A DNA stretch of 26,293 nucleotides from a virus. A program made the translations under genes and the position numbers. The notes beneath the pieces are model-generated. The model was given only the letters and a program-made list of their open reading frames with translations. It did no database searches and had not been told where the DNA came from. Positions 7,369 through 26,243 of the stretch are shown here, in pieces; the first letter of the stretch is position 1; the number at the start of each line of letters is the position of its first letter. The stretch is taken from UHGV virus genome UHGV-0165251. One strand, 5' to 3'.

Positions 7369-7827
7369 CTAATTTTCTGTTTCTTGGTTGTGTCCAAAGT
7401 TATATTCAATATCTGGTGTTGATGTATCAATATTCTTCATCCCATCAACAAGAGTTGATACAACAGCCAAATCTTGTTTGATTCTCATTAAATGGTATTT
7501 CTTCCGGCGCAATAAACTTTCAATGGCAAGTTTCTTCGTTGGGAATGCAAAAGATCTTTCTGCATTTTTTGCTACTTTCTTAATTTCATATCTATTTCTC
7601 TTTTGTTTCCATTCCTGTAACCACTGATTTGGTGCTGGTTTAAAATTAACGATCCAATGCGCAGGAACCAACCATGCATAATGCTCTGTCTGATGAAAAG
7701 CTATATATTGAAGTGCGAATATTTTGATTCCATCTTCTTCAACTGTCGCCTGGAATCTCCAGAAAACAGGCATTCCATCATGTTCAGTTTCTGATTCAGG
7801 AAAAGGTACGCTCCATGATATTGTCAT
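7369..7827 (-). CDS. hypothetical protein (152 aa), second gene of the repeat-flanked cassette
   Basis: Start overlaps the upstream stop (ATGA); no family recognised. Confidence 0.65.
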   Translation of the reverse strand: MTISWSVPFPESETEHDGMPVFWRFQATVEEDGIKIFALQYIAFHQTEHYAWLVPAHWIVNFKPAPNQWLQEWKQKRNRYEIKKVAKNAERSFAFPTKKLAIESLLRRKKYHLMRIKQDLAVVSTLVDGMKNIDTSTPDIEYNFGHNQETEN

Positions 7828-8078
7828 ATCTCACCTTCAAGAGCTTTGCTGATTGCTGACAGTGCTTTCGATACTTCATCAGGATAATGGTCATTCCATT
7901 TTTGCTTGTATGCCTTGTTTAGCATCGCTTGCAGAGCTTCGAGCAAATCAGGAGCTGCCTCCATCAATCTCACATCACCTCGATGGATGGTTGTATCGTC
8001 AAACGTGAAATAAACCCCATCATCGTTAAATCCAGCGCCAACAACATTCCATGGCCTTTTCATTCTTCCTACTGTCAT
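7824..8078 (-). CDS. hypothetical protein (84 aa), first gene of the repeat-flanked cassette
   Basis: gaggtga RBS; translationally coupled to the 152-aa gene; no family recognised. Confidence 0.65.
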   Translation of the reverse strand: MTVGRMKRPWNVVGAGFNDDGVYFTFDDTTIHRGDVRLMEAAPDLLEALQAMLNKAYKQKWNDHYPDEVSKALSAISKALEGEI

Positions 8079-8094
8079 TATTCACCTCTGTGTA

Positions 8095-8122
8095 TTTATG
8101 CCAAAAATAAAGGCCGACTATG
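8095..8122. repeat. 28-bp direct repeat, copy 2 (tttatgccaaaaataaaggccgactatg)
   Basis: Direct repeat of 7325..7352; contains the stop codon of the 8118..8432 gene. Confidence 0.7.
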
Positions 8123-8432
8123 TGGCTTTATATCTGCGCACTGAAATAATTGGGCAGTGTGTAATTCCAGCAGTCTTTTCCCATCTCAACAATGGGATGC
8201 GGAATACTTCGAACTCCACCTTCCCGATATGGTCGTTTTGGAAATCCTTTTTCCCCACCAACCAAACCTTTTCAAATCTACGCTCTATAAGGAAAGCTGA
8301 TGACCATCCATATTTAGAACCAGCTTTTAACGCTTCCTTTTTTGTCGGAAAGGTTGTAACAATGGAAATTATCTCATCAACTCGGAGGCTTAAAAGATTA
8401 TTGTCTTTAAAGCTAATTCCGTTCGACGCCAT
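8118..8432 (-). CDS. hypothetical protein (104 aa) immediately downstream of N
   Basis: Start 3 nt after the N stop; no family recognised. Confidence 0.55.
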   Translation of the reverse strand: MASNGISFKDNNLLSLRVDEIISIVTTFPTKKEALKAGSKYGWSSAFLIERRFEKVWLVGKKDFQNDHIGKVEFEVFRIPLLRWEKTAGITHCPIISVRRYKAT

Positions 8433-8435
8433 AAT

Positions 8436-8741
8436 TCATCCCTCATACAGTGGTTTGCTGCCTAATTTCATTTTCTGGCGACCAACACAAGTCACACCCA
8501 TTTCACTGCGTGGCTTGCGGTAGTAAATACGATTCTGTTTACGCTCGACTTCTTCTGACTTCTTGCAGCGAAGGCTTCCGAGTGATGCTGCTTTATCTGC
8601 TCTGACGCAACCAGAGAGCTTTAGCGCAATTTTTCGCGCCAGTCGCTGCTCTTGCATTGCCTGTTCACGTTGAGCCTGTCTGCGTGCTCTGCGGCGATTT
8701 CTGGCGTTATCGTCAGCCAGATATGTAATGACTACTGTCAT
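8436..8741 (-). CDS. N: N-type transcription antiterminator
   Basis: N-terminal arginine-rich motif NARNRRRARRQAQRE; C-terminal YRKPRSEMGVTCVGRQKMKLGSKPL resembles lambda N (YSKPGERGITCSGRQKIKGKSIPLI). Confidence 0.8.
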   Translation of the reverse strand: MTVVITYLADDNARNRRRARRQAQREQAMQEQRLARKIALKLSGCVRADKAASLGSLRCKKSEEVERKQNRIYYRKPRSEMGVTCVGRQKMKLGSKPLYEG

Positions 8742-8849
8742 GTTGACCTCCGATGATTGACTTTGGCGGTGACGCGCCGGGTGCTTATCTTCCGGTTGCT
8801 GTCGTGCAGCTGCACTTCACGTCACCCCAAAGCCAACTACTCTTTGGTT

Positions 8850-8889
8850 CCCGCATTTCGGCGGGACAATCCCATCAATGTTAAAGAGC
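8850..8889 (-). promoter_or_regulatory. nutL (boxA gctctttaa plus boxB hairpin cccgccgaaatgcggg)
   Basis: The same boxA and boxB sequences recur at 10519..10561 on the plus strand (nutR); nutL lies between pL and N. Confidence 0.6.
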
Positions 8890-8935
8890 CTGCCAATCTT
8901 TTCCGTTTGGCTTCCAGCTTCCTGCTGATGGCTAA

Positions 8936-9022
8936 AGAATACTGTAGGTATTTTATTGTGTAAATACCCAAGGTATTTATTTTTGATGAAATAATGATAA
9001 GCAAATGAATACAAAGGATATT
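8936..9022 (-). promoter_or_regulatory. oL/pL: three operators AATAC-N5-GTATT (8938..8952, 8963..8977, 9008..9022); pL -35 tttaca and -10 tattct
   Basis: Palindromes of the same consensus as in oR; putative -10 and -35 (17-bp spacer) overlap OL1 and OL2. Confidence 0.55.
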
Positions 9023-9108
9023 TATTTTTTCGGTGTCTGCTTGTTCAGTGCTTTTTATGCGGGATATGTGAAGTGGATCCCGATAGCTATTGCTGCCGGG
9101 ATTATAGG

Positions 9109-9477
9109 TTAGTCAGCGAAGGTTAAGACGAGAATTAACTTAATGATGTCTGCTACAACAGACACGGCCATAGATAAACCAAAGACGATCCAAGCCACAG
9201 TGATGTCTTCACTACCATCGTATAGAGTTCCGTAATCACTGGTGTAAGGCGTAAATGTCGCGCCTTGATACAACAGGTATAAGCTTGAACCATAGAGGAT
9301 AAATGCAGATATCCCTTGTATTGCTATGATCACTAGAATCATGAAACGAGCTGATCTATGCGCCCAAGCCTGTCTTATTTTTTCTGATAGAGATTTCGCA
9401 ATAAAAGCATGCGCTAAGCCGTAAATTGTCGAGATTGCCAACATCCCAAAAAAGCTTGCTATAGCGGTTCCAACCAT
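9109..9477 (-). CDS. hypothetical integral membrane protein (3 predicted TM helices) co-transcribed with cI
   Basis: ATG 16 nt after the cI stop with aagggg RBS (the ORF track starts it at TTG overlapping the cI stop); three long hydrophobic segments; not RexB-like. Confidence 0.65.
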   Translation of the reverse strand: MVGTAIASFFGMLAISTIYGLAHAFIAKSLSEKIRQAWAHRSARFMILVIIAIQGISAFILYGSSLYLLYQGATFTPYTSDYGTLYDGSEDITVAWIVFGLSMAVSVVADIIKLILVLTFAD

Positions 9478-9494
9478 AAGCGCCCCTTGCGTGA

Positions 9495-10211
9495 TCAAAC
9501 CAGCCTTAGTTTTGTCTCAATTGCAACGCCTATAATCTTGCAGTTTCCATTGATTGGCACGAGAGGCCATGCAGGGTTAAGTCCCTTGAGGTATTTATTT
9601 CCTCCGTCGATTATCAGCTTCTTGAATGTTGCCTCGTTAGAGTCAGAAAGTTTTGCTATGACCAAGCTGCCGTTGATCGCCTCCCTTCCGGTATCGAAAA
9701 GAACGAATGTTCCCTCTGGAATGCTTAACCCAACCGGTGCCGTCATTGAATCACCTTCCACTTTAAGCCAGAACGCATTACCTTGAATATGCGCGTCAGA
9801 CTCAAGCCAAACATCTATGTCTTTAATGGTGTATGGTTCGCATGCTTCACACCACGAGCCAGCCTGGATACTGCTTAACACCGGATACCTCTTTCCTGCT
9901 CTGTATTCCCCTGCATACCTTACGTTGGCATCGCTCTTAAGGCTTTCTGCCTGTTCTGCAACCTTGGCAGCAATTGACTGGCTAAAATCAGCAATTGAGA
10001 CTTGCAACAATCGTGCAAAACCAGATGCAACCTCAACGTTTAGCGCATTTCTGCCATTAAGATAATGCCCTACCGCTCCTTGGGTGATACCCAGTTCATC
10101 AGCGATTGAGTATTGGGTTATTCCCAATTCTTTCTTTTTTGACTCATACAAAGCCTTAAGCCGCTTAGCGTCTTCCAGCTGTTCTGTCGTCAGTGATTTT
10201 TTATTTTCCAT
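9495..10211 (-). CDS. cI: CI repressor (HTH domain plus LexA/S24-type autocleavage domain)
   Basis: 238 aa; N-terminal HTH (ITQYSIADELGITQGAVGHYLNG), C-terminal GDSM serine and K dyad region (GDSMTAPVG...VIAKL...TFKKL). Confidence 0.9.
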   Translation of the reverse strand: MENKKSLTTEQLEDAKRLKALYESKKKELGITQYSIADELGITQGAVGHYLNGRNALNVEVASGFARLLQVSIADFSQSIAAKVAEQAESLKSDANVRYAGEYRAGKRYPVLSSIQAGSWCEACEPYTIKDIDVWLESDAHIQGNAFWLKVEGDSMTAPVGLSIPEGTFVLFDTGREAINGSLVIAKLSDSNEATFKKLIIDGGNKYLKGLNPAWPLVPINGNCKIIGVAIETKLRLV

Positions 10212-10217
10212 AGCTTA

Positions 10218-10288
10218 ATTCTAATAGCTAAGGTACTTAAACTAAAAATACCCTGAGTATTGATTGCTTTGAATACCTGTAGTATTCT
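10218..10288. promoter_or_regulatory. oR with pRM and pR: operators OR3 10223..10237, OR2 10247..10261, OR1 10272..10286; pR -35 ttgatt/-10 tattct; pRM -10 tagaat on minus strand
   Basis: Three AATAC-N5-GTATT palindromes at 24-25 bp centre spacing between divergent cI and cro; the pRM -10 ends 6 nt before the cI ATG. Confidence 0.6.
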
Positions 10289-10317
10289 TTGTTCATGGTT
10301 AATAACGGAGAGTGCAT

Positions 10318-11108: not shown

Positions 11109-11916
11109 GTTAGCTGATTACAGGCCTCAACTGGAGGTCGTGGAGCATCGCGTGGCAGATACCGAAGATGGTTTCATGCGCGTTGCTAACGAGATTACCG
11201 ACAGTCTGCTGATGGCTGATTTAACCGTCCGGCAGCTGAAGGTGATGCTCGCTATCATGCGCAAGACATACGGATTCAATAAGCCGATGGATCGACTCAC
11301 AAACACGCAGATAGCAGCCATGACAGGTATTCATCACACTCATGTTTGCGCTGCCAAGCGCCAGCTTATCGAGCGTAAATTCCTCATTGCTGATGGCGTG
11401 AAAATCGGAGTGAACAAGGTGGTTTCTCAGTGGATTAGCCAGGACAGCTTAACATTAGCTAAAACAGCTAATAAAACATTAGCCAAGTCGGCTAATGGGC
11501 ATAAGCCAAGTCAGCTAAACACAAAAGACAATATACAAAAGACAATAAATACAAATACCCCCTTACCCCCTAACGGGGGCGGCGATGGGCAGGTTAAACC
11601 TGAACGTCGCAAGGCAGAACGAATCGACTACGAATCCTTCCTGAACGCCTACAACACCGAAGTCGGTGACAGACTTCCACATGCTGTTGCGGTCAACGAG
11701 AAACGCAAACGCCGCCTGAAGAAAATCATCCCGCAACTGAAAACGCCAAACGTGGACGGTTTCAGAGCGTATGTCAGGGCGTTTGTGCATCAGGCCAAGC
11801 CGTTTTACTTCGGAGACAACGACACGGGCTGGACGGCTGATTTTGATTACTTGCTGAGAGAAGATTCGTTAACGGGGGTTCGGGAAGGGAAGTTTGCAGA
11901 CAGGGGGATAGCATGA
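11095..11916 (+). CDS. O: replication initiator, lambda O / P22 gp18-like N-terminal domain
   Basis: [32 protein letters not shown] matches lambda O (LTKRQFKVLLAILRKTYGWNKPMDRITDSQLS); C-terminal half unrelated to lambda O. Confidence 0.8.
11453..11557. other. candidate replication origin: three ~20-bp iterons plus AT-rich tract inside the O-like gene
   Basis: cattagctaaaacagctaat / cattagccaagtcggctaat / cataagccaagtcagctaaac followed by acaaaagacaatatacaaaagacaataaatacaaatac. Confidence 0.5.
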
Positions 11917-13289
11917 GACAGGATATCGAAGCGAGCGTTATCGGTGGCCTGCTGATTGGTGGATTAACTCCAACCGCCAGCGACGTTCTGGCAACGCTGG
12001 AGCCGGAAGCGTTTTCAATTCCGCTCTACCGGAAAGCCTTCGAGGTTATCCGCAAGCAGGCGAGAAACAGAAACCTAATCGATGCGCTGATGGTTGCCGA
12101 GGCGTGCGGAGAGGAGCATTTCACGTCAATCCTGATGACCAGCAAAAACTGCCCGAGTGCCGCAAACCTGAAGGGATATGCAGGAATGGTCGCGGATAAC
12201 TATCACCGCCGTCTGGTGCTGGAAATCATGGATGAAATGCGTGAACCAATTCAGAGCGGAACCATCGACGCATCGAGTCAGGCGATGGATGAACTTGTAA
12301 AGCGTCTTTCAGCCATCAGAAAGCCCCGTGACGAGGTTAAACCGGTACGGTTAGGGGAAATCATCACTGACTACACTGACACGCTTGACAGGCGTCTGAG
12401 GAACGGAGAAGAGTCAGATACCCTGAAGACCGGAATCGACGAACTTGACGCCATCACCGGAGGGATGAACGCAGAAGACCTGGTGATTATCGCCGCTCGT
12501 CCTGGTATGGGTAAAACCGAACTGGCGCTGAAGATTGCCGAAGGCGTTGCAAGCCGTGTTATTCCTGGTTCTGACGTCCGGCGCGGAGTGTTGATTTTCT
12601 CGATGGAAATGAGCGCATTGCAGATTGCAGAGCGAAGCATTGCCAACGCCGGGAGGATGTCGGTTAGCGTACTGCGAAATCCTGCATCGATGGATGACGA
12701 AGGCTGGGCGCGTGTTGCTAACGGCATGAGTCAGCTTGCAGATTTGGATGTATGGGTAGTCGATGCCTCGCGGTTATCGGTCGAAGAAATTCGCTCAATC
12801 GCAGAGCGGCACAAACAGGAAAATCCAAACCTGTCACTCATCATGGCGGATTATCTTGGCCTGATTGAGAAGCCGAAAGCAGATCGCAACGACCTCGCAA
12901 TTGCTCACATCTCCGGAAACCTGAAGGCGATGGCGAAAGACCTGAAAACACCGGTTATTTCCCTGAGTCAGCTTTCACGCGATGTTGAGAAGCGACCAAA
13001 CAAACGCCCGACAAACGCAGATTTGCGTGATTCAGGAAGCATTGAACAGGACGCAGACTCAATCATCATGCTCTATCGGGAAGCGGTATATGACGAGAAC
13101 AGTAGCGCCGCGCCATTTGCTGAAATCATCGTGACGAAAAACCGTTTTGGCTCACTTGGTACGGTTTACCAGCGGTTCTGCAACGGACACTTTGTTGCAT
13201 GTGACCAGGATGAAGCCAGACAGATTTGCACAACATCAAATGCACCCGCTGCGCGTGGCAGACGATATGCACAAGGGGCTGACGTATGA
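11913..13289 (+). CDS. DnaB-family replicative helicase (P22 gp12-like)
   Basis: 458 aa; Walker [10 protein letters not shown], DnaB motifs (SLEMS-like [18 protein letters not shown]); start overlaps the O-like stop (ATGA). Confidence 0.9.
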
Positions 13290-17815: not shown

Positions 17816-18139
17816 ATGAAGATGCCAGAAAAACATGACCTGTTAGCCGCCATTCTCGCGGCAAAGGAACAAGGCATCGGGGCAATCCTTGCGTTTGCAA
17901 TGGCGTACCTTCGCGGCAGATATAATGGCGGTGCGTTTACAAAAACAGTAATCGACGCAACGATGTGCGCCATTATCGCCTGGTTCATTCGTGACCTTCT
18001 CGACTTCGCCGGACTAAGTAGCAATCTCGCTTATATAACGAGCGTGTTCATCGGCTACATCGGTACTGACTCGATTGGTTCGCTTATCAAACGCTTCGCT
18101 GCTAAAAAGGCCGGAGTAGAAGATGGTGGTAATCAATAA
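17816..18139 (+). CDS. S: S holin/antiholin (dual start M1-K2-M3)
   Basis: [41 protein letters not shown]... matches lambda S107/S105. Confidence 0.9.
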
Positions 18140-20218: not shown

Positions 20219-20644
20219 ATGGCGACTGAGAAAAAGAACGTCGGTCGCCCTTCGGATTACCTGCCGGAGGTGGCTGATGATATCTGTGCGCTGCTTGCCT
20301 CCGGGGAAAGTCTGGTTAAGGTTTGCAAGCGCCCCGGCATGCCAGCAAAGGCTACTGTATTTCGCTGGCTGTCAGAGCATGACGAATTTAGAGACAAGTA
20401 CGCGAAGGCAACTGAGGCACGAGCTGATTCTATTTTCGAAGAGATATTCGAAATTGCTGACAATGCGATTCCAGATGCTGCTGAGGTGGCAAAGGCAAGA
20501 CTTCGCGTTGATACCCGCAAATGGGCGCTGGCCCGAATGAATCCACGTAAGTATGGCGACAAGGTAACTAATGAGCTTGTCGGCAAAGACGGCGGCGCAA
20601 TCCAGATTGAAACATCACCGATGAGCACTCTATTCGGAAAATGA
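20219..20644 (+). CDS. terminase small subunit (Sf6 gp1-like); expected to contain the pac site
   Basis: MATEKKNVGRPSDYLPEVADDICALLASGESLVKVCKRPGMP...ATEARADSIFEEIFEIADNA closely matches Sf6 small terminase as I recall it. Confidence 0.8.
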   Translation: MATEKKNVGRPSDYLPEVADDICALLASGESLVKVCKRPGMPAKATVFRWLSEHDEFRDKYAKATEARADSIFEEIFEIADNAIPDAAEVAKARLRVDTRKWALARMNPRKYGDKVTNELVGKDGGAIQIETSPMSTLFGK

Positions 20645-22053
20645 CCTCGATTAATCCTATCTTTGAACAGTTCATTGAGGCGCATCGCTACAAAGTCGCC
20701 AAAGGCGGTCGAGGTAGCGGTAAATCATGGGCAATTGCGAGGCTGCTTGTTGAAGCGGCGCGTCGGCAGCCGGTGCGCATCCTCTGTGCTCGTGAACTGC
20801 AAAACAGTATCAGTGATTCGGTAATCCGGTTGCTTGAAGACACTATCGAGCGTGAAGGGTATTCGGCTGAGTTTAAAATTCAGCGTTCAATGATTCGTCA
20901 TCTCGGAACGAATGCTGAATTCATGTTCTACGGCATCAAAAACAACCCTACGAAGATTAAATCGCTCGAAGGTATTGATATCTGCTGGGTGGAAGAAGCG
21001 GAGGCGGTAACGAAGGAATCGTGGGATATTCTGATACCAACCATTCGCAAGCCGTTTTCCGAAATATGGGTGAGCTTCAACCCGAAAAACATCCTCGACG
21101 ATACCTATCAGCGATTCGTTGTAAATCCTCCCGATGATATTTGTCTGCTGACGGTGAACTACACCGACAACCCGCATTTTCCTGAAGTTCTCCGTCTGGA
21201 GATGGAAGAGTGTAAACGCAGAAATCCGACACTGTATCGTCACATCTGGCTTGGTGAGCCAGTAAGCGCAAGTGATATGGCAATCATCAAACGTGAATGG
21301 CTTGAAGCCGCAACCGATGCGCACAAGAAACTCGGATGGAAAGCGAAAGGCGCGGTTGTTTCTGCACATGACCCGTCAGATACAGGGCCAGATGCTAAAG
21401 GTTACGCATCGCGTCACGGTTCGGTGGTTAAGCGCATTGCCGAAGGTCTGCTGATGGACATCAACGATGGTGCTGACTGGGCTACTTCGCTGGCTATTAA
21501 AGACGGCGCTGACCATTACCTGTGGGATGGTGATGGTGTTGGTGCCGGGCTACGCAGACAGACAACGGAAGCGTTCTCCGGTAAGAAAATCACCGCCACG
21601 ATGTTCAAGGGCAGCGAATCGCCATTCGATGAAGATGCGCCATATCAGGCCGGAGCATGGGCTGATGAAGTCGTACAGGGCGACAATGTTCGCACTATTG
21701 GCGATGTATTCCGCAATAAGCGAGCGCAATTCTATTACGCGCTGGCTGACAGGCTGTATCTGACATATCGGGCGGTTGTTCACGGTGAGTATGCAGACCC
21801 CGACGACATGCTGAGTTTCGATAAAGAAGCGATAGGCGAGAATATGCTGGAGAAGCTGTTTGCAGAACTGACGCAGATTCAGCGCAAATTCAATAACAAC
21901 GGGAAGCTGGAGCTAATGACTAAGGTCGAAATGAAGCAGAAGCTCGGTATTCCATCTCCCAACCTGGCTGATGCTCTGATGATGTGTATGCATTGCCCGG
22001 CATTGGTCCGCGAAGAAACAGAAATATACGTTCCCTCATCCTCCGGTTGGTAA
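20641..22053 (+). CDS. terminase large subunit (headful type)
   Basis: 470 aa; Walker A KGGRGSGKS near the N terminus; ATPase and nuclease domains; start overlaps the terS stop. Confidence 0.9.
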   Translation: MTSINPIFEQFIEAHRYKVAKGGRGSGKSWAIARLLVEAARRQPVRILCARELQNSISDSVIRLLEDTIEREGYSAEFKIQRSMIRHLGTNAEFMFYGIKNNPTKIKSLEGIDICWVEEAEAVTKESWDILIPTIRKPFSEIWVSFNPKNILDDTYQRFVVNPPDDICLLTVNYTDNPHFPEVLRLEMEECKRRNPTLYRHIWLGEPVSASDMAIIKREWLEAATDAHKKLGWKAKGAVVSAHDPSDTGPDAKGYASRHGSVVKRIAEGLLMDINDGADWATSLAIKDGADHYLWDGDGVGAGLRRQTTEAFSGKKITATMFKGSESPFDEDAPYQAGAWADEVVQGDNVRTIGDVFRNKRAQFYYALADRLYLTYRAVVHGEYADPDDMLSFDKEAIGENMLEKLFAELTQIQRKFNNNGKLELMTKVEMKQKLGIPSPNLADALMMCMHCPALVREETEIYVPSSSGW

Positions 22054-22055
22054 AC

Positions 22056-24182
22056 ATGGCAGAGACATTAGAGAAAAAACATGAGCGGATCATGCTCAGG
22101 TTTGACCGCGCCTATTCTCCACAGCAGGAAGTGCGCGAAAAGTGCATTGAAGCTACGAGGTTTGCTCGTGTCCCCGGAGGTCAATGGGAAGGAGCAACGG
22201 CGGCTGGAACTAAGCTTGATGAGCAGTTCGAGAAGTATCCTAAGTTTGAAATCAATAAGGTTGCAACTGAACTTAACCGCATCATTGCAGAATACCGCAA
22301 TAACAGAATCACAGTTAAGTTTCGTCCTGGTGACAGAGAGGCAAGCGAAGAGTTAGCCAATAAATTAAATGGTCTGTTCCGTGCTGACTACGAAGAAACT
22401 GATGGCGGTGAGGCTTGCGATAATGCATTTGACGACGCTGCTACTGGTGGTTTCGGTTGCTTCCGTTTGACGTCGATGCTGGTCAATGAATACGACCCCA
22501 TGGACGATCGTCAGCGTATTGCTATTGAACCAATATACGACCCGTCGCGCTCTGTGTGGTTTGACCCTGACGCTAAGAAGTACGACAAATCTGACGCGTT
22601 GTGGGCGTTCTGCATGTATTCGTTGTCACCTGAAAAATATGAGGCTGAATACGGAAAGAAACCTCCTGCTTCTCTGGATGTAACGTCTATGACCAGTTGG
22701 GAATATGACTGGTTTGATGCAGATGTTATTTACATAGCGAAGTATTACGAAGTTCGTAAAGAGTCTGTTGACGTCATCAGTTATCGACATCCAATCACTG
22801 GAGAGATTGCAACATACGACAGTGATCAGGTTGAAGATATTGAAGATGAACTGGCAATAGCTGGATTTCAGGAAGTGGCAAGGCGCTCAGTGAAGCGCCG
22901 TCGTGTGTATGTATCCGTAGTGGATGGTGATGGTTTCCTTGAGAAACCCCGACGTATTCCTGGTGAGCATATCCCCCTCATCCCGGTTTATGGAAAACGC
23001 TGGTTCATTGATGACATTGAGCGTGTCGAAGGACATATTGCAAAAGCAATGGATCCACAGCGTTTGTATAACCTTCAGGTATCAATGCTGGCTGATACTG
23101 CCGCGCAAGACCCCGGTCAGATCCCTATAGTTGGCATGGAGCAAATTCGTGGACTTGAGAAGCACTGGGAGGCTCGCAACAAGAAACGCCCAGCGTTCTT
23201 GCCGTTGCGCGAAGTGAGAGATAAATCTGGCAACATTATCGCTGGAGCTACCCCCGCAGGATATACACAGCCTGCGGTTATGAATCAGGCATTGGCTGCA
23301 TTACTACAGCAAACCAGTGCTGATATTCAGGAGGTTACAGGCGGCAGTCAGGCCATGCAGCAGATGCCAAGTAATATTGCTCAGGAAACGGTTAACAACT
23401 TGATGAACAGAGCAGATATGGCTTCGTTTATCTATCTGGACAATATGGCGAAAAGTCTTAAACGCGCTGGTGAAGTATGGCTGTCAATGGCGCGTGAAGT
23501 GTACGGTTCAGAACGTGAAGTGCGCATCGTTAACGAAGATGGAAGTGATGATATCGCTGTCCTGAGCGCACAGGTTGTTGACAGGCAAACAGGGGCTGTT
23601 GTTGCGTTAAATGACCTTTCTGTCGGTCGATACGATGTGACGGTTGATGTTGGACCAAGCTACACAGCACGACGTGATGCAACGGTTTCTGTACTGACAA
23701 ATGTCCTTAGCTCTATGCTTCCAACAGACCCAATGCGCCCGGCAATTCAGGGTATTATTCTGGACAATATCGATGGCGAAGGCCTTGATGACTTCAAAGA
23801 GTACAACCGAAACCAACTGCTGATATCTGGTATTGCAAAACCACGCAATGAGAAAGAGCAGCAGATTGTTCAACAGGCGCAAATGGCAGCACAAAGCCAG
23901 CCAAATCCTGAAATGGTTCTCGCTCAGGCGCAAATGGTAGCAGCGCAGGCAGAAGCGCAAAAAGCAACTAACGAAACTGCTCAAACTCAAATCAAAGCAT
24001 TTACTGCCCAGCAGGATGCGATGGAGAGTCAGGCAAACACTGTCTATAAACTGGCTCAAGCCAGAAACATCGATGACAAAGCAGTGATGGAGGCAATACG
24101 CCTTCTGAAAGATGTCGCCGAGTCACAACAACAGCAATTCCAGTCACCACCACAGTCACCGGCAGACTTAATGCCGAGTTAA
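22056..24182 (+). CDS. portal protein (P22/Sf6 type)
   Basis: 708-aa product from MAETLEKKHER; motifs shared with P22 gp1 (KRRRVY, GEHIPLIPV, NLMNRAD, GRYDVTVDVGPS); ATG 2 nt after the terL stop. The listed ORF start at 21984 is upstream and in-frame. Confidence 0.9.
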   Translation: MAETLEKKHERIMLRFDRAYSPQQEVREKCIEATRFARVPGGQWEGATAAGTKLDEQFEKYPKFEINKVATELNRIIAEYRNNRITVKFRPGDREASEELANKLNGLFRADYEETDGGEACDNAFDDAATGGFGCFRLTSMLVNEYDPMDDRQRIAIEPIYDPSRSVWFDPDAKKYDKSDALWAFCMYSLSPEKYEAEYGKKPPASLDVTSMTSWEYDWFDADVIYIAKYYEVRKESVDVISYRHPITGEIATYDSDQVEDIEDELAIAGFQEVARRSVKRRRVYVSVVDGDGFLEKPRRIPGEHIPLIPVYGKRWFIDDIERVEGHIAKAMDPQRLYNLQVSMLADTAAQDPGQIPIVGMEQIRGLEKHWEARNKKRPAFLPLREVRDKSGNIIAGATPAGYTQPAVMNQALAALLQQTSADIQEVTGGSQAMQQMPSNIAQETVNNLMNRADMASFIYLDNMAKSLKRAGEVWLSMAREVYGSEREVRIVNEDGSDDIAVLSAQVVDRQTGAVVALNDLSVGRYDVTVDVGPSYTARRDATVSVLTNVLSSMLPTDPMRPAIQGIILDNIDGEGLDDFKEYNRNQLLISGIAKPRNEKEQQIVQQAQMAAQSQPNPEMVLAQAQMVAAQAEAQKATNETAQTQIKAFTAQQDAMESQANTVYKLAQARNIDDKAVMEAIRLLKDVAESQQQQFQSPPQSPADLMPS

Positions 24183-24195
24183 CCAGGAGTAATCA

Positions 24196-25080
24196 ATGGA
24201 AAACGAACTGATCATCGACGGTCAGGTTATTGACCTGTCTGAAACACAGGAAAATGCAGAAGAAACCATCATCCAAACAGAGTCACAGCCTGAGAATGAA
24301 AGCCAGGATGACAACGGAAAAGAGATGGCATCTGATCCTGAAAAAACCGAAGAGACACCAGAAGATTACGCCTTGCGTATTGGTGATGAAGAAATTCAGC
24401 TTAACGCTGACGATGATGATCACATTGACGGGCAACCTGCACCGCAATGGGTGAAAGATCTTCGCAAAGGCTTCAAAGAAACACAGAAAGAAAACCGTGA
24501 GTTGCGCCGCCAGCTTGAGGAAGCATTAGCCAAGCCTGCGGAACATCAGCAACCACAACCAGACGATATTCCACCAAAACCGACTCTTGAGTCGTGTGAT
24601 TATGACGAACAGGCGTTTGAACAGGCATTGACTGATTGGCATGAGAAAAAAGGCCGTGTCGAACAGCAGCAGCAACAAAAACTACGTCAGCAACAGGAAT
24701 ACCAACAGCGTTTCCAGCAAAGGGTAGAAGCGCATAAACAACGGGCAGCCAAACTTCCTGTGAAAGATTATCAGGAAATGGAGGCCATTGTTCTTAGTGA
24801 GCTACCACCAATTCAGCAGGAAATCATCATTCACTGTGCAGACGAAGGCTCTGAACTACTCGCCTATGGCTTAGGTAAGAGCCAGCAATTACGCCAGCGT
24901 GTAGCCGCTGAGACAGATCCAATTCGCGCAGCATTCCTCTTGGGGCAGATTAGCAAACAGGTAAGCCTTGCTCCAAAACCAAAGAAAGCCATCAAGCCAG
25001 AGCCGGAAGTACGTGGTGGCGGTGCTGATGCGAAACAAGACGAATTCAACAAATTATGCCCCGGCGCAAAAATCGAATAA
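24196..25080 (+). CDS. scaffolding protein
   Basis: Acidic, Q-rich, helical 294-aa protein between portal and coat, as in P22-like head modules. Confidence 0.7.
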   Translation: MENELIIDGQVIDLSETQENAEETIIQTESQPENESQDDNGKEMASDPEKTEETPEDYALRIGDEEIQLNADDDDHIDGQPAPQWVKDLRKGFKETQKENRELRRQLEEALAKPAEHQQPQPDDIPPKPTLESCDYDEQAFEQALTDWHEKKGRVEQQQQQKLRQQQEYQQRFQQRVEAHKQRAAKLPVKDYQEMEAIVLSELPPIQQEIIIHCADEGSELLAYGLGKSQQLRQRVAAETDPIRAAFLLGQISKQVSLAPKPKKAIKPEPEVRGGGADAKQDEFNKLCPGAKIE

Positions 25081-25091
25081 GGAAAAGATAA

Positions 25092-26243
25092 ATGCCTAAC
25101 AATCTCGACAGTAACGTCAGTCAAATCGTTCTGAAAAAATTCCTTCCGGGTTTTATGTCAGATTTAGTTCTGGCGAAAACCGTAGACCGTCAGTTGCTGG
25201 CAGGTGAAATCAACTCCAGCACTGGCGATAGCGTTAGCTTTAAACGTCCGCATCAATTCTCATCCCTCCGTACTCCAACTGGTGATATTTCAGGGCAAAA
25301 TAAAAACAACCTGATCTCAGGTAAAGCTACTGGGCGTGTAGGTAACTACATCACTGTTGCTGTTGAATATCAGCAACTGGAGGAAGCGATCAAGCTTAAC
25401 CAACTGGAAGAAATTCTCGCGCCGGTTCGCCAGCGAATCGTTACCGACCTTGAAACAGAGCTTGCTCACTTCATGATGAATAACGGTGCGTTGTCACTTG
25501 GTAGCCCCAATACTCCAATCACCAAATGGTCTGATGTTGCGCAGACGGCATCTTTCCTGAAAGACCTCGGCGTTAATGAAGGTGAAAACTATGCTGTAAT
25601 GGATCCATGGTCTGCACAGCGACTTGCTGATGCGCAGACTGGTTTGCACGCTTCAGATCAATTGGTTCGTACTGCATGGGAGAATGCACAGATCCCGACC
25701 AATTTTGGCGGCATTCGCGCACTGATGTCTAATGGGCTTGCCTCTCGTACGCAGGGGGCATTTGGCGGAACACTGACAGTCAAAACACAGCCAACTGTTA
25801 CCTATAACGCAGTTAAAGACTCATACCAGTTCACTGTAACATTGACCGGAGCGACAACCAGCGTTACAGGTTTCCTGAAAGCTGGTGATCAGGTTAAATT
25901 CACCAATACATACTGGCTGCAACAGCAGACCAAACAGGCGTTGTATAACGGAGCCACACCAATTAGCTTCACTGCAACGGTTACTGCTGATGCTGATTCA
26001 GACGGCAGTGGCGATGTGACGGTTACGCTTTCTGGTGTTCCGATTTATGACACTACAAACCCGCAGTACAACTCTGTAAGTCGTCAGGTAGCGGCAGGTG
26101 ATGCCGTATCTGTAGTAGGCACTGCTAGCCAGACAATGAAGCCAAACCTGTTCTATAACAAGTTCTTCTGTGGACTTGGCTCTATCCCACTGCCGAAACT
26201 GCACAGTATTGATTCTGCTGTTGCAACATATGAAGGTTTCTAG
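25092..26243 (+). CDS. major capsid (coat) protein, P22/Sf6 type, apparently 3'-truncated by IS2 insertion
   Basis: 383-aa ORF at the coat position; its stop TAG is the first three bases of the IS2-like terminus; P22-type coats are ~420-430 aa. Confidence 0.8.
   Translation: MPNNLDSNVSQIVLKKFLPGFMSDLVLAKTVDRQLLAGEINSSTGDSVSFKRPHQFSSLRTPTGDISGQNKNNLISGKATGRVGNYITVAVEYQQLEEAIKLNQLEEILAPVRQRIVTDLETELAHFMMNNGALSLGSPNTPITKWSDVAQTASFLKDLGVNEGENYAVMDPWSAQRLADAQTGLHASDQLVRTAWENAQIPTNFGGIRALMSNGLASRTQGAFGGTLTVKTQPTVTYNAVKDSYQFTVTLTGATTSVTGFLKAGDQVKFTNTYWLQQQTKQALYNGATPISFTATVTADADSDGSGDVTVTLSGVPIYDTTNPQYNSVSRQVAAGDAVSVVGTASQTMKPNLFYNKFFCGLGSIPLPKLHSIDSAVATYEGF

Follow-up and report, generated by a model that had tools for sequence, protein, structure and literature searches.

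A predicted three-helix membrane protein encoded directly after cI in the HK620-type immunity module as a candidate exclusion factor of lysogens

We analysed a stretch of viral DNA of 26,293 nucleotides (the window) and found that the open reading frame (ORF) lying immediately downstream of its cI repressor gene is hkaS. This is a genuine gene, carried as an accessory by the HK620-type immunity module, and it has been on record since 2001 without a functional assignment. We propose that hkaS would be expressed in the lysogen and that its product may protect this cell from other phages at the inner membrane, a reading to which we give a probability of about one half. The proposal draws entirely on position and architecture, given that the interval between cI and N is a published hotspot for accessory genes. 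This interpretation is plausible and the concept behind it is not new: if hkaS is a defence gene, HkaS would be a sequence-novel example of the known repressor-linked, lysogen-expressed membrane exclusion proteins. The gene is in any case a reasonable experimental candidate.

The ORF can be read on the minus strand in two versions that share a TAA stop at 9109-9111, one of 129 aa starting from a TTG (9109-9498) and the other of 122 aa starting from an ATG at 9475-9477 (9109-9477). The shorter version is the hkaS coding sequence according to the ORF list, the match to AAK28867 and to PHROG 6534, hydropathy, the AlphaFold2 model and the dN/dS analysis. The cI gene (9495-10211, minus strand) encodes a repressor of 238 aa with the Pfam domains HTH_3 and Peptidase_S24, and its TGA stop is located at 9495-9497. 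The original prediction correctly positioned the membrane protein gene directly downstream of cI, but the distance of 16 nt that it gave between the cI stop and the start codon is 17 nt when counted in the sequence. A Shine-Dalgarno sequence, AAGGGG (9483-9488, minus strand), is present 5 nt before the ATG, and its purine-rich core (AAGG/AGGA) is kept at the equivalent site of the Salmonella and Hafnia-type loci. Since the PHROG 6534 profile (1-122 of 122) aligns to residues 8-129 of the TTG version, that is, from the ATG, since the HK620 annotation also has 122 aa, and since the Salmonella-type copies carry an in-frame TAA directly before the ATG, we consider this codon the real start. The alternative TTG (9496-9498, minus strand), which overlaps the cI stop codon, is not conserved and is probably unused.

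By tblastn, the window ORF was 97.5% identical to hkaS of coliphage HK620 (AAK28867, AF335538), whose product appears as "unknown" in the 2001 record, and it matched PHROG 6534, a family annotated as of unknown function, over its full length (E = 4.2e-78). The protein had been described as unrecognised; it has in fact been annotated as hkaS in GenBank since that record and belongs to a PHROG family. All the retrievable database names for its homologues are "hypothetical protein". The surrounding 1.6 kb (window 8700-10300) shared 98.6-99% identity with the immunity regions of HK620, mEpX2, HK630, HK140, HF4s, phi296 and phi367, and the cI of the window was 99.6-100% identical to those of HK620, mEpX2, HK630 and others.

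Profile scans of HkaS against Pfam and NCBIfam yielded nothing usable, no PHROG family beyond 6534 gave a meaningful E-value, no similarity was found in PDB or BFVD, and a scan of PADLOC-DB v2.0 returned 0 defence families at E <= 1. As regards a possible membership in a housekeeping membrane protein family, a check suggested together with the original prediction, no confident match was obtained in Pfam, NCBIfam or PDB. When 1.84 billion representative proteins were searched exhaustively with the HMMER profile, three matches were obtained, corresponding to one full-length relative, one truncated fragment and one giant YD-repeat protein that aligned with the profile only in the periplasmic loop. 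The family forms a single cluster at 50% identity among these 1.84 billion proteins and, on the basis of these searches, HkaS is an orphan; as this search revealed no distant relatives, there is no annotation to borrow. A literature search gave no paper on HkaS function, and neither expression nor phenotype data were found in the literature searched; the passages searched in the papers dealing with P22 SieA, Tai, BASEL and co-transfer make no mention of hkaS. A scan of the window against Rfam gave no match.

Homologues of HkaS with 55-96% identity were found in E. coli, Hafnia paralvei, Salmonella and metagenomes. When hkaS of the window was compared with that of the Hafnia-type locus, we counted 26.7 non-synonymous differences in 281 sites (pN 0.095) and 39.3 synonymous differences in 85 sites (pS 0.46), which correspond to a dN of 0.101, a dS of 0.722 and an omega of 0.14; the dN/dS ratio is about 0.14-0.2. 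In addition, 30 of 30 sampled E. coli copies were annotated as an intact coding sequence. Thus, hkaS is a genuine gene under purifying selection. The idea that this ORF has lost its function or was annotated in error could only appeal to a few single-member clusters (P0006, P0007, P0009 and P0014), in which the N-terminal third is scrambled or the protein is cut to 44 aa; these homologues resemble frameshifts, arising from sequencing error or occasional inactivation. However, pN is far below pS, 146 complete genomes and phages of different genera have retained the full-length ORF, its Shine-Dalgarno sequence is conserved and the AlphaFold2 model is confident, so that this idea is effectively refuted by the selection and conservation data and we regard it as extremely improbable.

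The same comparison for cI gave a dN of 0.022, a dS of 0.708 and an omega of 0.031. The nearly equal dS values of both genes (0.708 and 0.722) indicate that cI and hkaS have a common history, whereas at the amino acid level HkaS has evolved around 4.5 times faster than cI (dN 0.101 versus 0.022). In agreement with this, the identity to diverged copies was 60% and 81% for HkaS versus 86% and 95% for cI.

The linkage between both genes was complete in the genomes surveyed. Among 5,426 complete E. coli genomes, cI was present in 146, at 147 places, and the same figures were obtained for hkaS, which therefore occurs in approximately 2.7% of these genomes. Its carriers are diverse E. coli and include STEC strains as well as Stx phages. 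In the phage collection, the 16 records that contain cI are identical to those that contain hkaS. The pair occurs in five genera, Lederbergvirus (HK620, 611R6), Shamshuipovirus (mEpX2), Yautsimvirus (HK140), Lambdavirus (HK630) and Traversvirus (phi296), which have different virion types, indicating that hkaS moves with the immunity module and not with the virion type. The order cI-hkaS, upstream of OL/pL and N, was the same in the window, HK620, mEpX2 and the Salmonella, Hafnia-type and metagenomic (L022) loci. Every diverged homologue that could be placed came 18-20 nt after a cI belonging to this lineage and was followed by approximately 350 nt containing operators and pL, and then by N. 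Overall, the spacing between cI and hkaS ranged from 17 to 20 nt regardless of the virion type, and the pair was retained down to 84-86% cI identity.

Upstream of cI, we identified OR3 (10223-10237), OR2 (10247-10261) and OR1 (10272-10286) with the pattern AATACCnnnGGTATT, allowing 1-2 mismatches, in agreement with the HK620 annotation. The divergent promoters pRM and pR are presumed to be located in this region (10223-10286); pR is annotated in HK620 and pRM is not. The downstream boundary of the cI-hkaS unit is the region 8936-8977 (minus strand), which contains pL (TTTACA, a 17 nt spacer and TATTCT), OL1 (8938-8952) and OL2 (8963-8977). The first gene of the pL operon encodes an N-like antiterminator (8436-8741, minus strand; phrog_271, E = 5e-38), whose match to Pfam N_peptide (E = 9e-4) was under the curated cut-off. 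The interval from the hkaS stop to N is taken up by operators and pL alone, which leaves no room for a partner gene beside hkaS. Downstream of N, a 104-aa ORF (8118-8432, minus strand) matched phrog_16670, of unknown function (E = 9e-40), and the ORFs at 7369-7827 and 7824-8078 had zero family matches. The genes located after N vary between the Salmonella and Hafnia-type loci, so that none of them looks like a conserved partner of hkaS.

On the minus strand, the gap between cI and hkaS contains neither a promoter-like nor a terminator-like motif. This, together with the short gap, the Shine-Dalgarno sequence belonging to hkaS itself and the same layout in the Salmonella, Hafnia-type and metagenomic loci, leads us to presume that both genes form an operon. 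From its position, hkaS would share a transcript with cI, initiated at pRM in lysogens and at pRE while lysogeny is being established, in a manner that would parallel lambda rexAB and bstA of phage BTP1. Regarding the end of this transcript, neither the motif scan nor RNA folding revealed a canonical intrinsic terminator between hkaS and pL (8965-9108, minus strand). A hairpin of 7 + 3 bp without a U tract was predicted from the RNA fold centroid at 9077-9102 (minus strand), 6 nt past the hkaS stop; it is conserved in the Hafnia-type loci, where a G.U pair is changed to A-U, and is missing in the Salmonella type. This hairpin is possibly an RNA 3'-end or stability element. In the L022 lineage, unlike in the window, hkaS is followed by a stem (ATGAC...GTCAT) and TTTTT. 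A third operator-like palindrome, AATACAAAGGATATT (9008-9022, 2 mismatches), lies within the stretch annotated in HK620 as tIMM (window 8997-9027) and not within the annotated OL3 (window 8984-9000). The block around this palindrome is invariant in the E. coli, Salmonella, Hafnia-type and metagenomic loci, whose flanks have diverged, and it is separated from OL2 by 45 bp, versus 25 bp between OL1 and OL2. The annotation of OL3 and tIMM in HK620 may need revision.

The hydropathy profile of HkaS (Kyte-Doolittle means over 19 residues) showed three hydrophobic segments at approximately residues 1-27, 43-68 and 92-121, with peaks of 1.67, 2.29 and 2.26. The AlphaFold2 model, built from an alignment of six sequences (pLDDT 90.4, pTM 0.77), has three long helices (2-29, 41-74 and 89-121), with a shorter one at 31-38 between the first two, and residues 78-86 form a small beta-hairpin. 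Both results agree with the protein of about 122 aa and three transmembrane (TM) helices originally predicted. The loop formed by residues 28-44 is basic (K28, K33, R35, R41 and R44), and that formed by residues 71-94 is acidic and tyrosine-rich (D81, D87, E90 and D91), with zero K or R. According to the positive-inside rule, which was used to orient the protein, we infer that HkaS is an inner-membrane protein with the N terminus out, the 28-44 loop in the cytoplasm, the 71-94 loop in the periplasm and the C terminus in. A signal peptide at the N terminus was also considered; nonetheless, a cleaved signal peptide is unlikely because the candidate site A22-H23-A24 is not conserved in the homologues, and cleavage at this position would leave the strongly basic loop in the periplasm.

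The alignment of the homologues revealed an invariant stripe of small residues on TM1 (G3, A5, S8, G11 and S16), an invariant Q54 in TM2, and the invariant motif S65-x-YLLYQGATF-x-x-Y-x-S-x-YG, which extends from the end of TM2 into the periplasmic loop. In TM3, a continuous invariant stripe was observed (W96, F99/G100, A104, S106, D110/I111, K113, L117/L118 and A121), in which D110 and K113 form an intramembrane pair. The most variable parts were the second half of the periplasmic loop (residues ~84-94) and the middle of TM2. In the HMMER search, residues 71-96 of this loop (window 9190-9267; QGATFTPYTSDYGTLYDGSEDITVAW) matched nine repeats of the giant protein (P0013, a YD/Rhs-like protein of 5,949 aa) with E = 3e-8; perhaps the loop adopts the fold of one YD-type beta-hairpin, but the match may also be a compositional coincidence.

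The position occupied by hkaS has clear precedents. In the lambda locus that we compared, the slot after cI contains rexA-rexB, as the original prediction had pointed out. The idea that lysogen-expressed accessory or defence genes occupy the cI-N slot has also been published (Owen 2020, PMC7067206; Owen 2021, PMC8585504). In these papers, the second of which cites Degnan 2007, the cI-N interval is presented as a mosaic hotspot for accessory loci, and bstA of BTP1 is transcribed from the cI promoter in lysogens. The slot content varies among the more distant relatives of the window cI: it is empty in Serratia phage OS31, whose cI is 71% identical, and in P22, and other relatives carry genes unlike hkaS. 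For instance, in Erwinia phage vB_EhrS_49 (L013 2530-3132), with a cI that is 65% identical, an unrelated soluble hypothetical protein of 200 aa is encoded 12 nt after cI. In phage 434 (OL657227; L021 2109-2513), a protein of 134 aa with a clear signal peptide, annotated as 'repressor protection protein', is encoded directly after cI and represents another envelope-directed product of the cI-N slot.

High expression beside a repressor has also been documented in prophage NC-SV of E. coli NC101, where two hypothetical genes with locus tags adjacent to that of the presumed repressor, GQ584_RS06840 and RS06845, underwent the largest loss of expression upon deletion of the prophage (logFC -11.7 and -11.1; PMC12803456, S1 Data), exceeding that of the repressor gene. 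The repressor is presumably RS06850, annotated only as an HTH transcriptional regulator. Protection by NC-SV was credited to an sRNA whose definition relies on 77 nt with 58% identity (PMC12803456), and RS06840 and RS06845 were apparently not tested in that svsR study. NC-SV is an unrelated lambdoid prophage and serves only as an analogy for this expression pattern, given that its repressor neighbourhood looks different.

We compared HkaS with the systems that it resembles in position or architecture. Exclusion by the lysogen-expressed rexAB genes of lambda is a textbook case, and RexB is a polytopic inner-membrane protein with four TM helices. HkaS shares with RexA-RexB the slot directly after cI and before OL/pL; however, it is the product of a single gene, with three TM helices and 122 aa, whereas Rex comprises two genes and RexB has four TM helices and 144 aa, and no RexA-like sensor accompanies hkaS. 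The hhalign probability for HkaS and RexB was 0.3%, and the Pfam and PHROG scans revealed no RexB family. Both statements of the original prediction in this respect are thus borne out, namely that the protein is not RexB-like and that it lacks a RexA partner, considering the 17-nt gap upstream and the presence of only operators and pL downstream. BstA of BTP1 is likewise an anti-phage protein encoded by a single gene directly after cI and transcribed from the cI promoter (PMC7067206, PMC8585504), with no similarity to HkaS.

In architecture, the closest match is P22 SieA, which is described in PMC10883804 as an inner-membrane protein of 162-164 aa, made by the prophage, with three predicted TM domains and no signal peptide that blocks DNA delivery. 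The hhalign probability was nevertheless 0.25%, and HkaS lacks the cytoplasmic motif FxRYPxEAxxFNK presented there as conserved in SieA. Moreover, the SieA gene has a promoter of its own in the immI/ejection-protein region, and its product acts against ejection proteins of P22-like phages; hkaS lies beside cI and is tied to no virion type. For P22 SieB, the hhalign probability was 0.04%. HK97 gp15, T4 Imm and the lactococcal Sie2009 are, like HkaS, small single membrane-anchored proteins made in the protected cell, although their sequence families are unrelated to it. The HK97 gp15 gene is located among the tail genes and its product acts on entry of the HK97 type; the gene for Sie2009 is close to the repressor. 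Sie2009 is a prophage-encoded blocker of DNA injection, according to PMC10883804. A further resemblance concerns size, the three TM helices and the predicted N-out/C-in topology, all of which HkaS shares with class I holins. These proteins (lambda S105 and P22 gp13) have approximately 105-120 aa and three TM helices, with N out and C in. In contrast to them, hkaS is located in the immunity region and not in a lysis cassette, its product, which terminates in ...LTFAD, lacks a charged cytoplasmic tail, and its expression would be expected together with the repressor and not late. No holin family was matched in PHROG or Pfam, and the hhalign probability with the holin of the window (17816-18139) was 0.2%.

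If HkaS is an exclusion protein, the most likely mode, by analogy with P22 SieA, HK97 gp15 and T4 Imm, would be a block of genome entry. According to the predicted topology, the exposed parts of HkaS are a basic cytoplasmic loop of 17 residues and a periplasmic hairpin of 24 residues. A protein that is nearly all embedded in the membrane and lacks a soluble partner fits a factor that acts at the membrane itself, and an entry block is favoured because so little of the protein would face the cytoplasm that it could hardly sense an infection inside the cell. Its target could be a host inner-membrane component or a feature common to many phages, more probably than the tail or ejection proteins of the carrier, since hkaS moves with the immunity module and not with the virion module. 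Within the defence reading, the main alternative mode would be a gated depolarising channel. Several observations weigh against the exclusion reading. The gene-wide dN/dS of 0.14-0.2 lacks the sign of an arms race, and a part of the loop (QGATFxPYxSxYG) is invariant instead of diversifying, both of which argue mildly against a classic arms-race surface; besides, there is no homology to characterised exclusion or abortive-infection proteins and no PADLOC match, and no canonical terminator follows hkaS in the window. The perfect association of hkaS with a single cI lineage might instead be explained by a function within the immunity circuit, or simply by close physical linkage.

The depolarising mode can be taken further, to a self-contained abortive-infection effector in which HkaS would form an oligomeric gated channel with a RexB-like output but without RexA; perturbation of the envelope by an infecting phage would cause depolarisation, and the infected lysogen would die before any progeny are formed. 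The slot shared with rexAB, the stripes on TM1 and TM3, the D110/K113 pair and Q54, which fit helix packing or the lining of a pore, and the long helices and periplasmic hairpin that would permit an oligomer are all compatible with it. Yet HkaS is similar neither to RexB nor to the holin of the window, the partner gene is absent, and no obvious sensor can be recognised, given that the cytoplasmic parts amount to the 17-residue loop and a few C-terminal residues; we regard this possibility as quite unlikely. HkaS might instead have no role in defence and act in lysogenic conversion, tuning a host transporter, a sensor or the envelope stress response to raise the fitness of the lysogen, as Bor, Lom and small regulatory membrane proteins do. 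Purifying selection and the invariant periplasmic motif would fit a conserved host partner, hkaS is present in diverse E. coli that include STEC strains and in Stx phages, and the cI-N slot also houses non-defence cargo of widely varying content (434, Erwinia phage 49, P22 and OS31). On the other hand, the best-studied cargoes of the slot named in the cited papers (rexAB and bstA) are anti-phage, the HkaS family is confined to prophage immunity modules, and it has no similarity to housekeeping or regulatory membrane-protein families. We consider a conversion role unlikely, although it deserves consideration.

A further possibility is that HkaS is a part of the immunity circuit and, by way of a membrane partner (FtsH/HflKC, for example), tunes the establishment of lysogeny, the stability of the repressor, or induction; this would account for the perfect linkage of cI and hkaS, present in 146 genomes each and in the same 16 phage records. 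In the same direction, the dS of hkaS equals that of cI, the pair is kept down to 84-86% cI identity, and transcription from pRE would yield HkaS along with cI. A spacing of 18 nt can by itself account for the linkage, however, and relatives of this cI with <=71% identity function without hkaS, as in Serratia OS31 and with P22 c2. Furthermore, the amino acid sequence of HkaS has changed ~4.5 times faster than that of cI, unlike what is expected from a tightly integrated component. A circuit role therefore seems very unlikely to us.

Returning to exclusion by a lysogen-expressed membrane protein, a more specific version is that HkaS is the founder of an undescribed family of single-protein, three-TM exclusion factors that ride the immunity module and confer broad heterotypic protection, by acting on the genome-entry step at the host inner membrane or by gated depolarisation, with the variable loop residues ~84-94 setting the specificity. 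We hold this version as tentative and somewhat doubtful. If HkaS does exclude phages, in whatever way, a compact one-gene membrane defence that current defence finders miss would be added to the E. coli repertoire, in ~2.7% of the complete genomes and in Stx-converting phages, and HkaS would offer a simple model for how infection can be blocked by an inner-membrane protein with almost no soluble domain, a question common to SieA, gp15 and Imm. If HkaS excludes no phage, hkaS would be another accessory gene in a slot of known variability.

As a whole, the window (1-26293) is a mosaic lambdoid phage or prophage, of which the best single phage record covers <=52%. Its DNA matches HK97 from base 1 and includes an integrase ORF (50-1120), the HK620-type immunity region, a DnaB-type helicase gene (11913-13289), a lysis cassette that starts at 17816, and P22-like terminase, portal, scaffold and coat genes (20641-26243).
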